Assembly (NCBI GenBank): GCA_030448025.1
Contig: JAUJNQ010000001.1
Location: forward strand, 608,432-672,431
Direction of reading: 5' to 3'
DNA from: Acidimicrobiales bacterium
GTDB lineage: Bacteria; Actinomycetota; Acidimicrobiia; Acidimicrobiales; GCA-2861595
Length of the DNA: 64,000 nucleotides
Shown here: one piece after another, positions 49,174 to 56,116 of the stretch
How positions within the stretch are numbered: position 1 is the first letter of the stretch
Layout of the letters: each line of letters starts with the position of its first letter
The notes under the pieces: model-generated
What the model was told of the DNA's origin: nothing
The model's database searches: none
Seen by the model: the letters and a program-made list of their open reading frames with translations, nothing else
Translations under genes and position numbers: made by a program

Positions 49174-50148
49174 TTAGTTGGCGCCTCCGCCGACCGGCAG
49201 GGCCGCATGGACCCCAACGCGCCGTTGGTCTCCGGTGCCGTCGCACACCTCGAAGCAAGCCTTGCCCCGCTCCTTCGCCCGGTACATGGCGGCGTCGGCC
49301 TGACGGACCAGGGCCGATGGGGTGTCCCTCCGCTCACCGGCTAGGGCGATCCCCACGCTGGCGGTGATGTACACGTCACCGCCGGGCAGCACCACCGCGG
49401 AGTCGCCGATGGTCCTGAGGACCCGATCGCCGATGGCCAAGGCGGAGTGGTCGTCACTCATGTCAAGGCACAGGATGGTGAACTCGTCGCCGCCGAAACG
49501 GGCCAGGGTGTCGCAGGGGCGGAGGACGCCCCGAAGTCGCGACGCAATCTCCACGAGGAGCTGGTCGCCGGCCTCGTGACCGAGCTTGTCGTTGATCGCC
49601 TTGAACCCATCGAGGTCGAAGAAGAGGACGGCGATCCTTCCCGGACGCCGCTCGACGTAAGCGAGGCCCATCTCCAGGCGGTCGAGGAACAGTGTGCGGT
49701 TGGGAAGCCCGGTGAGGTCGTCGTGGAGAGCCCGGTGAGCCAGTCTCTCGGCCTCCCGCTTGAGACGGTAAAGGTCGACGAAGACCGAAACCTTCGAGCG
49801 TAGGACAGCCGGGATGAAGGGCTTGTGCATGTAGTCCACGGCCCCGGTCTCGTAGCCCTGGAACATGCGCTCGGGATCCTCGCCGAAAGCAGTTAGGAAG
49901 ATGATCGGTACGTGCCTCGTCTTCTCCCGATGCTTGACGTACTTGGCCGTCTCGAACCCGCTGATCCCTCCTGGCATCTCCACGTCGAGCAGGATGAGGG
50001 CAAAGTCGTCCTCGAGGAGCCGCTTCAGGGCTTCCTCCCCCGAATGGGCTCGGACCAGGTTCAGCTCCAACGGCTCGAGGATGGCTTCCAGCGTCACCAG
50101 GTTCTCGACCCGGTCGTCCACCATGAGGATGTTCGCCTTCTCGGTCAT
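49174..50148 (-). CDS. response regulator-diguanylate cyclase (REC-GGDEF)
   Basis: Met172 of track ORF 49174-50661 (MTEKANILMVDD). Its ATG overlaps the cheR TGA (TGATG). Contains LTGLPNR, RFGGDEFTIL and the ADAAMYRAKERG motifs. Confidence 0.9.
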   Translation of the reverse strand: MTEKANILMVDDRVENLVTLEAILEPLELNLVRAHSGEEALKRLLEDDFALILLDVEMPGGISGFETAKYVKHREKTRHVPIIFLTAFGEDPERMFQGYETGAVDYMHKPFIPAVLRSKVSVFVDLYRLKREAERLAHRALHDDLTGLPNRTLFLDRLEMGLAYVERRPGRIAVLFFDLDGFKAINDKLGHEAGDQLLVEIASRLRGVLRPCDTLARFGGDEFTILCLDMSDDHSALAIGDRVLRTIGDSAVVLPGGDVYITASVGIALAGERRDTPSALVRQADAAMYRAKERGKACFEVCDGTGDQRRVGVHAALPVGGGAN

Positions 50149-51008
50149 CACGCCGTCCGCCGGTAGAGCTTCTGCCTTGCATCGAGGTCCTGGTAGCGCG
50201 CTTCGTGGGGTGTGAAACGCAGGGACTCCTTCTGTCCGAGCGCCAGGACCCCGAATGAGTTGAGGCTGTTGTAGAACAACTCGTGGACCCGCTCCTGGAG
50301 GGTTCTCCCGAAGTAGATCAGCACGTTGCGGCACAAGATCGCGTTGAACTCGTTGAAAGGGCCATCCGACACCAGGTTGTGCTGAGCGAAGAGTATGTTC
50401 TCCGACAGCGAGGGGCTGATGCGCAGCTTGCCGCCAGCTTCGGCGAAATAGCTGGAGAGCTCCCGGGTTCCTCCGGCACGAAGGTAATTGTCGGTGTAGG
50501 CGGGCATGTCCTTGAGCGCCAATGCGCCGGTCCTGGCCCTCTCGAGCACCACCTCGTTGATATCGGTGGCGTAGATCCTCGTCCGCTCGTAGAGGCCCTC
50601 CTCTTCGAGGACGATCGCCACGGAGTAGGCCTCCTCGCCTGTGGAGCAGCCGGCGATCCAAATGCGGATGACCGGATAGGTACGGAGGAGAGGGACCACC
50701 ATGGCCCGAAAGGCGGCGTAGAAGCCGGGATCCCGGAACATGGCTGTGACGTTGACAGACAGGACTCGGAGGAGCCGCTCCATGCAGGCCGGGTCGTGGA
50801 GGACCTTCTCCTGCAGGCCAGAGAGGCTCTCGAGCTTCTCTGCTTGGACGCGCTTGCGTAGCTGGCGCTTCAGGGAGCTGGGCGCGTACTGGCGGAAATC
50901 GAAGCCGTAGTGGCCATAGATGCCCTCCAGCAGCAGCTGCATCTCGACGTCCTCGAGGGCAGCGTCCGTCCCGCCCGGAACCTCTGCGAACATCCCCTCT
51001 CCGGGCAT
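50148..51008 (-). CDS. cheR: CheR-type protein-glutamate O-methyltransferase
   Basis: 286 aa. N-terminal helical domain (LLLEGIYGHYGFDFRQY), TAMFRDP, SAM-binding RIWIAGCSTGEEAYS, and CRNVLIYF. Confidence 0.9.
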   Translation of the reverse strand: MPGEGMFAEVPGGTDAALEDVEMQLLLEGIYGHYGFDFRQYAPSSLKRQLRKRVQAEKLESLSGLQEKVLHDPACMERLLRVLSVNVTAMFRDPGFYAAFRAMVVPLLRTYPVIRIWIAGCSTGEEAYSVAIVLEEEGLYERTRIYATDINEVVLERARTGALALKDMPAYTDNYLRAGGTRELSSYFAEAGGKLRISPSLSENILFAQHNLVSDGPFNEFNAILCRNVLIYFGRTLQERVHELFYNSLNSFGVLALGQKESLRFTPHEARYQDLDARQKLYRRTA

Positions 51009-54000: not shown

Positions 54001-56116
54001 CCTTGGCGATGGCCCGCACCTGGGTGGTCAGGTTCCCGGCCAGCTGGTTCACGTTGTCGGTGAGGCCCTTCCACGTGCCCGACACTCCCTCGACGCGCGC
54101 CTGGCCACCCAGACGGCCCTCGGTGCCGACCTCCTTGGCCACCCTGGTCACCTCGTCGGCGAAGGACTGCAGCTGGTCGACCATGGTGTTGATGGTGTCC
54201 TTGAGCTCGAGAATCTCGCCCTTGGCGTCGACCGTGATCTTCTGCGACAGGTCCCCCTTGGCCACGGCCGTGGCCACCTGGGCGATGTTGCGCACCTGGT
54301 TGGTGAGGTTGCCGGCCATGAAGTTGACTCGGTCGGTTAGGCCCCGCCAGGTACCGGAGACGCCCTCGACCTGAGCCTGGCCGCCCAGGCGACCCTCGGT
54401 GCCCACCTCCTTGGCCACCCTGGTCACCTCGTCGGCGAAGGACCGGAGCTGGTCGACCATGGTGTTGATGGTGTCGGCCAGGGTGGCCACCTCGCCCTTG
54501 GCGTCGACGGTGATCTTCTGGGACAGGTCCCCCTTGGCCACGGCCGTGGCCACCTGGGCGATGTTGCGCACCTGGTCGGTGAGGTTGCCGGCCAGCTGGT
54601 TCACGTTGTCAGTGAGGTCCCTCCAGGTCCCCGACACGCCCTTGACTTCGGCCTGGCCGCCCAGGCGGCCCTCGGTGCCGACCTCCTTGGCCACCCTGGT
54701 CACCTCGTCGGCGAAAGACTGCAGCTGGTCGACCATGGTGTTGACGGTCTTCTTCAACTCGAGGATCTCGCCCCGGGCGTCGACGGTGATCTTCTGGGAC
54801 AGGTCGCCCTTGGCCACGGCCGTGGTCACCTGGGCGATGTTGCGCACCTGGTCGGTGAGGTTGCCGGCCATCAGGTTTACGTTGTCGGTGAGGGCCCTCC
54901 ATGTGCCCGAGACGCCTTCGACTCTGGCCTGGCCCCCGAGCTTGCCCTCGGTGCCCACCTCCTTGGCCACCCTGGTCACCTCGTCGGCGAACGACCGGAG
55001 CTGCTCCACCATGGTGTTGATGGTGTCGGCCAGGATGGCCACCTCGCCCTTGGCGTCGACAGTGATCTTCTTGGACAGGTCGCCCGTGGCCACCGCAGTG
55101 GCCACTTGGGCAATGTTGCGCACCTGGTTGGTGAGGTTGCCGGCCATGAAGTTGACGTTTTCGGTGAGGCCCCTCCACGTGCCTGAGACGCCTTCGACCC
55201 GAGCCTGGCCCCCGAGCTTGCCCTCGGTGCCCACCTCCTTGGCCACCCTGGTCACCTCGTCGGCGAACGACTGGAGCTGGTCGACCATGGTGTTGACCGT
55301 GTTCTTGAGCGCCAGGATCTCGCCCTTGGCGTCGACGGTGATCTTCTTGGACAGGTCGCCACCCGCCACGGCCGTGGTCACCTGGGCGATATTGCGCACC
55401 TGGTCCGTGAGGTTGGCGGCCATGAAGTTGACGTTGTCGGTGAGGTCGCGCCAGGTGCCCGAGACACCCTTCACCTCTGCCTGGCCCCCCAGCTTGCCGT
55501 CGGTGCCCACCTCCTTGGCCACCCTGGTCACCTCGGAGGCGAAGGAGTTGAGCTGGCCGACCATGGAGTTCACCGTCGTGCCGATACGTAGGAACTCGCC
55601 CTTCACTGGCTGGCCCTGGATCTCGAGCGCCATCTCCTGGGACAGGTCACCCTGGGCGACGGCGTCGATGACCCTGGCCACCTCGGTGGTGGGCCGCACC
55701 AGGTCGTCGATCATGGAGTTGATGGCGCCGACCTGGCCCGACCAGGCTCCGGGAGCGACGATCTTCGCTCGCTCGGTGAGCAAGCCCTCACGGCCGATCG
55801 TGGTGCTTACCCGCATCACCTCCTCGACGATGCGGGCGTTCATCTCCACCACCTCGTTGTAGGTGGCCGCGATCTGCCCGAGCAGGCCCTTCTGCGACTC
55901 CGAGAGGCGGATGGAGAAGTCCCCTTGCTTGACCGCCTCCAGCGCGTCGAGCAGCTCCTGCATGACCCGGGTGCTCGGGGCCTTGCCGTTCTGGGTGCTC
56001 GAGCTCCGTTTGGGCGCTGCGTTGCCGTTGCCCCTCCTGGAGACCGAGGCGCCGTTGCCCGGGTTGGTGCTCGCCGCAGCTGCCTTCCTTGCCGTGGTGC
56101 TCGACCCTGCCCGCAC
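51020..56116 (-). CDS. soluble poly-HAMP / GAF / coiled-coil hybrid histidine kinase with three C-terminal REC domains
   Basis: 1698 aa with no obvious TM segment. About 8 HAMP-type units (6 near-identical 92-aa repeats). GAF at ~770-890. E/Q-rich coiled coil at ~915-1018. H-box [12 protein letters not shown], plus [16 protein letters not shown] and [13 protein letters not shown] x3. The start could instead be Met52 (55963). Confidence 0.9.
53890..55546. repeat. 6 tandem 276-bp coding repeats (92-aa HAMP units)
   Basis: SFA(D/S)[11 protein letters not shown] recurs at residues 191, 283, 375, 467, 559 and 651, an exact 92-aa period. DNA copies are highly similar. Confidence 0.85.

Follow-up and report, generated by a model that had tools for sequence, protein, structure and literature searches.

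We describe here a signalling module in a 64,000-nucleotide stretch of the genome of an Acidimicrobiales bacterium (contig JAUJNQ010000001.1, positions 608,432 to 672,431; hereafter the window), in which three successive genes encode a soluble hybrid histidine kinase of the poly-HAMP/GAF type, a methyltransferase of the CheR type and a diguanylate cyclase. On balance, and with moderate confidence, we favour the reading that this is a chemoreceptor-free kinase–CheR–cyclase module, in which CheR would methylate glutamates of the coiled coil that joins the GAF and DHp domains of the kinase and would thereby reset the output of the kinase. By its gene content and domain order, the module is a derived, CheB-less form of a cluster that recurs across phyla, set apart by a poly-HAMP sensor, a cyclase coupled to CheR, an inverted partner kinase and a position on an integrative island.

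The four genes and their products

Three closely spaced open reading frames (ORFs) on the minus strand encode the kinase, CheR and the cyclase (Table 1). The first-pass annotation of the window had described them as co-directional and tightly packed, which the ORF coordinates bear out, and the spacings that it gave are likewise to be seen in the sequence: 11 nucleotides separate the TGA of the kinase from the ATG of CheR, and the TGA of CheR overlaps the ATG of the cyclase (TGATG). The cyclase is translationally coupled to CheR. The public annotation places the start of CheR 15 nucleotides downstream, at Met6. For the kinase, the start is a GTG at 56116, with a strong Shine–Dalgarno sequence, AAAGGAGA, ahead of it. 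The same order of kinase, CheR and cyclase is found in a second genome (L083), where CheR is 73%, the cyclase 79% and the kinase 81% identical in amino-acid sequence. The corresponding ratios of nonsynonymous to synonymous substitution rates (dN/dS) are 0.24, 0.20 and 0.26, which indicates that the trio has been kept by selection.

The kinase has no transmembrane segment, the highest-scoring 19-residue hydropathy window (1.83) being a charged strand of the GAF domain. Pfam recognises in it seven HAMP and seven HAMP_2 stretches, GAF, HisKA and HATPase_c domains and three Response_reg domains. The first-pass description of a kinase of 1698 residues lacking a membrane segment, with GAF, HisKA–HATPase and three receiver (REC) domains, is thus upheld, as is that of an E/Q-rich coiled coil of about 100 residues, which measures 109 residues (911–1019) and keeps a strict heptad register. 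Its count of about eight HAMP units needs amendment: the repeats are real and correspond to 92-residue di-HAMP repeats, but the domains number 15, each of 46 residues, and occupy residues 51–740 in two alternating sequence types. The kinase shares with the AskA-type poly-HAMP family its solubility, a leading HAMP, alternating di-HAMPs, GAF, DHp/CA and REC domains. By sequence, the residues expected to carry phosphate are His1030 and the receiver aspartates D1361, D1482 and D1629. Residues 1–50 form a basic tail that precedes the HAMP array; FrzCD has a comparable basic extension, which binds DNA, and AskB has been reported to be DNA-associated (PMC13446029).

CheR matches both Pfam families of its kind above cut-off (CheR_N, PF03705, 46.9 bits; CheR, PF01739, 135.9 bits), has the corresponding two-domain plan of an all-alpha N-domain and a SAM-binding domain, and aligns over its full length to the structures 5FTW (E=4e-29) and 1AF7 (E=2e-21) in the Protein Data Bank (PDB). 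That the enzyme might lack residues for binding S-adenosylmethionine (SAM) or for catalysis had been named beforehand as grounds for abandoning a role in methylation, and alignment finds them intact: R98, D154, N212, R230, N231 and Y235 of E. coli CheR correspond to R92, D149, N211, R227, N228 and Y232 here. These six, the SAM-binding and catalytic roles of which we take from the literature on the Salmonella CheR structure, are invariant in an alignment of 22 members of the subfamily. The N-domain carries a basic helix (K47, R48, R51, K52, R53). The protein is not a member of the chemotaxis equivalog NCBIfam PRK10611, against which it scores 87.7 bits for a cut-off of 435. Its identity to the CheRs of the 80 clusters considered below is 41–64%, as against 29% to E. 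coli CheR, and thousands of relatives at about 65% identity occur in soil metagenomes.

The cyclase comprises a Response_reg and a GGDEF domain by Pfam and has its motifs intact (acceptor Asp55, I-site RPCD at residues 210–213, GGDEF at 219–223). Convergent to the operon lies a second hybrid kinase, here called HK2. Its best blastp matches among all fetched loci are the REC-kinase genes that flank CheR clusters (37–48% identity over 390–660 residues), and its N-terminal REC is 62% identical to that of the cyclase. Judged by these matches, HK2 is the counterpart of the CfcD/AskC-like REC-kinase of related clusters, here on the opposite strand. Its likeness to those partner kinases and to the REC of the cyclase together point to a functional unit of four genes, spanning 46897–56116. 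Neither the membership of HK2 in the module nor the mobile island on which the locus lies had been noticed in the first-pass annotation.

None of the usual companions of CheR was found in the window. The E. coli proteins Tar, Tap, CheA, CheW and CheB, used as tblastn queries, returned only matches at the level of HAMP, REC and HATPase domains, and Pfam scans of 23 larger ORFs revealed no che genes, the sensitivity of this result being bounded by the E. coli queries, the ORFs scanned and the extent of the 64-kb window. The two methods agree with each other and with the first-pass annotation, which had remarked on the absence of a methyl-accepting chemotaxis protein (MCP), CheA, CheW and CheB. 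A Wsp-like pathway was considered and rejected, MCP, CheA and CheW being absent from the window.

Clusters of the same kind in other bacteria

A census of CheR genes lying beside such kinases, which had been proposed as a check, was taken over 80 loci, these being the best genomic relatives of the window CheR in a scan of one genome per species. Domains were mapped over the six frames of each locus, the queries being the domains of the window and the Che proteins of E. coli. The loci cover more than ten phyla and come from Gemmatimonadota, Cyanobacteria, Acidobacteriota, Bacillota, Deinococcus, Myxococcota, Bacteroidota, Verrucomicrobiota, Planctomycetota, Desulfobacterota, Bdellovibrionota, Actinomycetota and many Pseudomonadota. 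CheR lies immediately 3′ of a GAF–coiled-coil–HisKA–HATPase–REC(2–3) kinase in 76 of the 80, a count that includes loci in which just the receiver tail of the kinase is present at a contig cut; the adjacency is not peculiar to the window. After CheR comes, in 64 loci, a CheB_methylest protein of about 195 residues that has no receiver; a REC-(PAS)-kinase is next after CheB in 46 loci, and at least nine further loci have one upstream. MCP, CheA and CheW are encoded in none of the 80 clusters, and an MCP gene is found within 10 kb in just three, on the other strand. CheB is absent from 16 loci, amongst them all 11 of the Bacillus/Paenibacillus type and Deinococcus.

The sensors of these kinases differ, as judged by Pfam, with CHASE3 in Pseudomonas, Flavobacterium and Anabaena, 4HB_MCP in Paenibacillus and a poly-HAMP array in 11–12 loci and in the window. 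Despite this variety the GAF–coiled-coil–kinase core is constant among CheR-linked kinases. The genes after CheR also vary (CheB, a REC-kinase, a REC protein, a REC-GGDEF protein or none), and a cyclase output recurs independently in four loci (L064, L123, L022 and L018). The window has in common with the clusters a kinase directly upstream of CheR, a CheR of the kinase-linked group and a REC-kinase partner; it has neither CheB nor CHASE3, a poly-HAMP array taking the place of the latter. In a locus from the Thermoanaerobaculia (L011, 6646–10000), about 3 kb without a recognised domain separate the poly-HAMP kinase from CheR, the spacing being tight elsewhere.

Clusters of this type have been noted in Pseudomonas, and the novelty implied by the first-pass annotation was too high, the module being a CheB-less derivative of a very common arrangement (cfcABCDE, bmsA). 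In P. putida, the CHASE3/GAF hybrid kinase CfcA is required for the activity of the REC-GGDEF protein CfcR, the REC of which is closest to the REC of CfcD (PMC4951495). CfcB and CfcC are the CheR3/CheB3 pair, which according to work cited in PMC4951495 has no role in chemotaxis. The cfcABCDE cluster is the one described in P. alkylphenolica and P. brassicacearum as the bmsA-cheR-cheB-hybrid kinase cluster (PMC8175716). No report of a role for CheR or CheB in clusters of the cfc/bmsA type was found in the searchable literature. The window resembles the Pseudomonas loci (L030, L035, L036 and L038) in having a GAF–coiled-coil–HisKA–HATPase–REC kinase followed by a CheR of the same group, a REC-kinase partner and no MCP, CheA or CheW; the output to a REC-GGDEF protein with a REC like that of the partner kinase is a further parallel (PMC4951495). 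It differs in several respects. The Pseudomonas kinase has a membrane-linked CHASE3 sensor, whereas that of the window is a soluble 15-HAMP array; CheB is present in Pseudomonas only; the P. putida cyclase is unlinked and of the GGDEF-EAL type, whereas that of the window is coupled to CheR; and in the window the partner kinase is inverted and the locus lies on an integrative island.

Also among the closest known systems are the poly-HAMP kinases AskA, AskB and AskC of Myxococcus xanthus and Amb07 of Sorangium, which are soluble and combine alternating canonical and non-canonical di-HAMPs with a GAF domain, DHp/CA and more than one receiver (PMC13446029, PMC7643160). Here too the neighbouring gene encodes a partner kinase with a REC (askB–askC), and AskC binds one of the receivers of AskA. 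However, askC follows askB directly, with CheR and CheB unmentioned (PMC7643160), in the manner of the 24 unlinked kinases of the reverse census below, and the output is developmental gene regulation rather than a linked cyclase; CheR is mentioned in neither description of the Ask proteins (PMC13446029, PMC7643160). The fungal group III kinases (Nik1/Os-1/TcsC) are likewise soluble, with 92-residue di-HAMP repeats before HisKA–HATPase–REC (PMC13446029, PMC7643160). In their descriptions, by contrast, GAF, an acidic coil and a CheR partner are unmentioned, and output is via Ypd1 to the HOG mitogen-activated protein (MAP) kinase pathway.

The Wsp system of Pseudomonas (WspA–F, WspR) also combines a CheR-type methyltransferase and a REC-GGDEF output in one locus. 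Methylation in Wsp is thought to tune the synthesis of cyclic diguanylate (c-di-GMP). Unlike the window, it has an MCP (WspA), CheW-like proteins, a CheA-type kinase (WspE) and a CheB (WspF), the kinase of the window being of the HisKA type. Three further candidates for a precedent, from Halomonas, Caulobacter (Hmr) and Sphingomonas (WelA), proved to be unrelated.

The coiled coil as candidate methyl acceptor

Since the GAF–kinase core is the constant partner of CheR, the linker between GAF and DHp was examined. Its length differs in seven-residue steps only, and its heptad, counted from a YKSEFLA anchor, has N, Q or S at position a, E at b and c, L at d, E or Q at e and f, and Q or S at g. 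Over 70 kinases, drawn from all of the phyla above, the coil is better conserved than GAF, the mean frequency of the top residue being 0.53–0.56 in the coiled coil and 0.44 in GAF. Candidate acceptor pairs predicted for the window kinase are E920/E921, E938/E939, D945/E946, E965/E966, E973/E974 and D980/E981. The methylation sites of E. coli Tar are also E-E or E-Q pairs with a spacing of seven residues (TEQQASA LEETAAS MEQLTAT), at Q295, E302 and Q309, a numbering with which the sequence is consistent.

There is a further connection between enzyme and motif. Two large CheB–CheR fusion proteins, both chance encounters (L106, 3720–6386, minus strand; L132, 2352–7703, plus strand), carry six to seven consecutive x-N-E-E-L-x-x heptads right after the CheR domain, and such NEEL heptads in CheB–CheR proteins constitute a fusion-type link between these enzymes and the motif. 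The fusions thus have a NEEL run beside CheR and CheB domains; they differ from the module in that enzyme and coil form one polypeptide, with neither poly-HAMP nor GAF. Both adjoin poly-HAMP kinases that have no CheR gene of their own.

A reverse census, for which the coiled coil and DHp served as the seed in place of CheR, gave 43 judgeable metagenomic kinases; 19 of them have a link to CheR/CheB, and in the other 24 a REC-kinase comes directly after, as in askB–askC. EEL heptads are more numerous in the 19 linked than in the 24 unlinked kinases (Mann–Whitney p=6e-4, a statistic that overstates independence, as the unlinked kinases are phylogenetically clumped and include many close relatives), and linked coils are usually longer. 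A large unlinked poly-HAMP clade has QQKELQQTNEQLAQK where the linked kinases have QQEELQQTNEELEEK (QQKEL..NEQL vs QQEEL..NEEL). The difference suggests an enrichment of the motif in linked kinases, and that only. An EEL coil exclusive to CheR-linked kinases was rejected, six unlinked kinases having kept the motif. As to the metagenomic loci L085–L118 and L151, many of their poly-HAMP/GAF kinases have a REC-kinase next with no CheR or CheB between; the linker of these kinases is a fixed 74 residues, with K or Q at positions that are E in CheR-linked kinases.

Whichever sensor a CheR-linked kinase has (CHASE3, 4HB_MCP or poly-HAMP), the coil is always present, which makes the coil a likelier target of CheR than the HAMP array. 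From this, from its resemblance to the methylation heptads of MCPs and from its occurrence fused to CheB–CheR proteins, the GAF–DHp coiled coil is the best candidate for the methyl acceptor. The first-pass annotation had CheR serve the adjacent kinase, at either the array or the coil, with output to c-di-GMP. The adjacency in 76 of 80 loci, the lack of MCP, CheA and CheW, the conserved trio and the parallel with CfcA all argue for that proposal; its first-named target, the HAMP array, now appears the less likely of the two.

We infer the methyl-acceptor site, the phosphotransfer routes and the physiological signal along the following lines. The kinase, a soluble dimer, would sense a cytoplasmic cue, and the signal would pass through the HAMP array and GAF to the coil and DHp. 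Autophosphorylation would occur at His1030, and the phosphate would be passed, directly or through the kinase's own receivers, to two near-identical receivers, those of the cyclase and of HK2; phosphorylation of Asp55 in the cyclase would switch on c-di-GMP synthesis. CheR, made from the same transcript, would use SAM to methylate the b and c glutamates of the N-E-E-L-x-x-x heptads in residues 911–1019, and the resulting neutralisation of charge may alter the packing of the coil and reset the balance of kinase and phosphatase activities, as methylation of chemotaxis receptors does. In most related clusters, the REC-less CheB esterase would reverse the methylation. It appears to have been lost in this lineage, where the methyl mark would either be long-lived and slowly reversible or be removed by an enzyme encoded elsewhere.

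Several observations weigh against this proposal, the clumping of the unlinked kinases among them. The EEL motif is present without an adjacent CheR in L086, L087, L094, L103, L112 and L114. Because CheB might deamidate glutamine at the acceptor sites, fewer glutamines were predicted there in CheB-less clusters; this signature failed, the ratio Q/(E+Q) at positions b, c, e and f being the same in clusters with and without CheB, an outcome that tells little or counts slightly against the proposal. The coil motif does not have the small Ala, Ser or Thr residues that flank MCP methylation sites. Pfam recognises no Hpt domain in the three module proteins or in HK2 that would carry phosphate from the hybrid kinase to the REC of the cyclase. 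Neither methylation of a histidine kinase by CheR nor methylation data for any member of the cluster was found in the searchable full-text literature. Lastly, P. putida mutants in other cfc genes, including those for CheR and CheB, kept the crinkly phenotype (PMC4951495), from which it follows that any effect of CheR may be subtle.

It is unlikely, in our view, that CheR acts within the module but elsewhere than on the GAF–DHp coil, be it on the HAMP array, a receiver, HK2 or the cyclase. The array is the largest helical surface of the kinase and adjoins nothing else, the EEL coil does occur in kinases without an adjacent CheR, and it is to the cyclase, not the kinase, that CheR is translationally coupled. 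Such an array is, however, absent from the CheR-linked kinases of Pseudomonas, Flavobacterium, Anabaena and Paenibacillus; what comes after CheR is variable, where the upstream kinase core is constant; and it is the NEEL coil that recurs fused to CheB–CheR.

Rather less probable is that the module is decaying cargo, with CheR left as a relic without a regulatory role, or as a mere binding partner, after the loss of CheB and the inversion of the partner kinase. The intact state of the three genes, at dN/dS of 0.20–0.26 against an orthologous trio 73–81% identical, and the conserved catalytic residues of CheR argue otherwise, as does the stability of CheB-less clusters in whole lineages (11 of 11 loci of the Bacillus/Paenibacillus type, and Deinococcus). 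Decay would be in keeping with the absence of CheB from the window, with the lack of a scored phenotype in P. putida cfc cheR/cheB mutants (PMC4951495) and with a nearby PAS-GGDEF-EAL-REC gene that is split over three frames; those frameshifts, however, may be assembly errors, because the window and a public record differ by indels (see below).

We consider it very improbable that this is an ordinary chemotaxis CheR which methylates MCPs encoded elsewhere and whose adjacency to the kinase has no functional meaning: its CheR_N and CheR architecture is complete and its homologues include chemotaxis CheRs of known structure, the search for che genes covered the 64-kb window only, and an MCP is encoded within 10 kb in three of the 80 loci, but the same kinase core is adjacent in 76 of the 80 across more than ten phyla, including Flavobacterium, Chryseobacterium and Pedobacter, which to our knowledge lack flagellar chemotaxis, the score against the NCBIfam equivalog is far below its cut-off, CheR came on a mobile island together with the kinase, and the P. 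putida orthologue was reported to have no part in chemotaxis (PMC4951495).

The island and the wider meaning of the module

The features of the locus and of its surroundings are collected in Table 1.

Table 1. Position and basis of assignment of the features of the module and of the island that carries it (coordinates are window positions).
Feature	Position	Strand	Basis
Soluble poly-HAMP/GAF hybrid histidine kinase, 1698 aa, AskA/CfcA-like core	51020..56116	-	Pfam, hydropathy, repeats, residues, dN/dS
Basic low-complexity N-terminal tail of the kinase, 50 aa, 9 K/R, no D/E	55967..56116	-	
15-HAMP array: one leading HAMP and seven alternating di-HAMP repeats; 276-nt tandem DNA repeats (families D1, D2)	53897..55966	-	
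GAF domain, residues 768-907	53396..53815	-	Pfam GAF_2 and GAF
Acidic heptad coiled coil between GAF and DHp, residues 911-1019 (109 aa)	53060..53386	-	
HisKA-HATPase core and three receivers	51023..53059	-	Pfam
CheR-type SAM-dependent glutamate methyltransferase, 286 aa (281 aa if from Met6)	50148..51008	-	Pfam, PDB matches, residues
REC-GGDEF diguanylate cyclase, 324 aa	49174..50148	-	Pfam, sequence, dN/dS
Partner hybrid kinase HK2, REC-HisKA-HATPase-REC-REC, 676 aa, convergent to operon	46897..48927	+	Pfam, blastp
tRNA-Val(CAC); 3' 39 nt (40617-40655) form the left attachment repeat	40581..40656	+	ARAGORN, Rfam, direct-repeat family D6
Tyrosine integrase of island	42644..43768	-	Pfam Phage_integrase, Phage_int_SAM_3, Phage_int_M; also called in public record
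VapB-VapC (PIN) toxin-antitoxin pair, island cargo	43920..44536	-	Pfam PIN; VapB_antitoxin and PIN in called genes
Divergent GAF-PAS-PAS-GGDEF-EAL protein, c-di-GMP turnover cargo of island	56881..59640	+	Pfam
Right attachment repeat, perfect 39-nt copy of tRNA-Val 3' end	63336..63374	+	Repeat family D6, 100% identity

Besides the four genes of the module, the two attachment repeats enclose the integrase, the VapBC pair, a gene for a GNAT protein and another two genes of the GGDEF-EAL type. The GC content drops from about 0.71 to 0.65, being 0.64–0.67 inside the island and 0.70–0.73 in the chromosome to the left, and the region has the hallmarks of a tRNA island, namely a repeat of the tRNA 3′ end, a tyrosine integrase nearby and deviating GC. 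The perfect repeats, the integrase and the shift in GC make the module cargo of a 22.7-kb integrative element at tRNA-Val. The cargo of the island is almost wholly devoted to c-di-GMP and two-component signalling. The left 40 kb of the window are ordinary chromosome, with genes for polyphosphate kinase, aconitase, glutamate synthase and an AdnAB-like helicase–nuclease pair.

About 760 nucleotides of non-coding DNA (56117–56880), without an Rfam match, separate the start of the kinase from the divergent GAF-PAS-GGDEF-EAL gene. Rfam at its gathering thresholds finds nothing but the tRNA in the window, and a reading in terms of regulatory RNA was dropped. Further on, at 59585–62620 (plus strand), a PAS-PAS-GGDEF-EAL-REC protein is split over three overlapping frames, with its GGDEF and EAL matches truncated at the junctions; the gene is either a frameshifted pseudogene or the product of indel errors in the assembly. 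The public record JAUJPE010000004.1 (L082) is 99.8% identical to 40342–60998 of the window, with 30 mismatches and about 11 small gaps, and contains a 183-nucleotide AT-rich intergenic stretch that is missing near 45068–45072. Each of the four module proteins differs by zero or one residue between the two, and gene calls split by indels differ between them.

CheR and CheB are usually regarded as adaptation enzymes specific to chemoreceptors, and here a common cross-phylum cluster pairs them with a receptor-free hybrid kinase of the HisKA type. The kinase of such clusters controls biofilm and c-di-GMP in Pseudomonas. A broader proposal, which we put forward tentatively and would not yet call probable, is that the N-E-E-L coil represents a second, chemoreceptor-independent class of methyl-accepting element, through which a dedicated CheR, in most cases joined by a CheB that has no REC, would endow ordinary histidine kinases with a built-in memory based on methylation in more than ten phyla, packaged in the present case on an island with a c-di-GMP output. 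In CheB-less versions, methylation might report the supply of SAM or act as a slow, nearly one-way switch, as opposed to adaptation. The instance described here is unexceptional in itself. Its value is that of a compact system for the question of whether CheR methylates histidine kinases: a concrete candidate substrate can be named (the six acidic pairs within residues 911–1019), and the minimal, soluble set of kinase, CheR and cyclase is convenient for reconstitution in vitro. The island context implies that a complete c-di-GMP control unit can move horizontally. If the proposed methylation is true, sensory adaptation through methylated glutamates would no longer be confined to chemoreceptors but would include two-component kinases, and there would be an explanation for the unusual conservation of the linker that thousands of annotated ‘hybrid sensor kinases’ possess.

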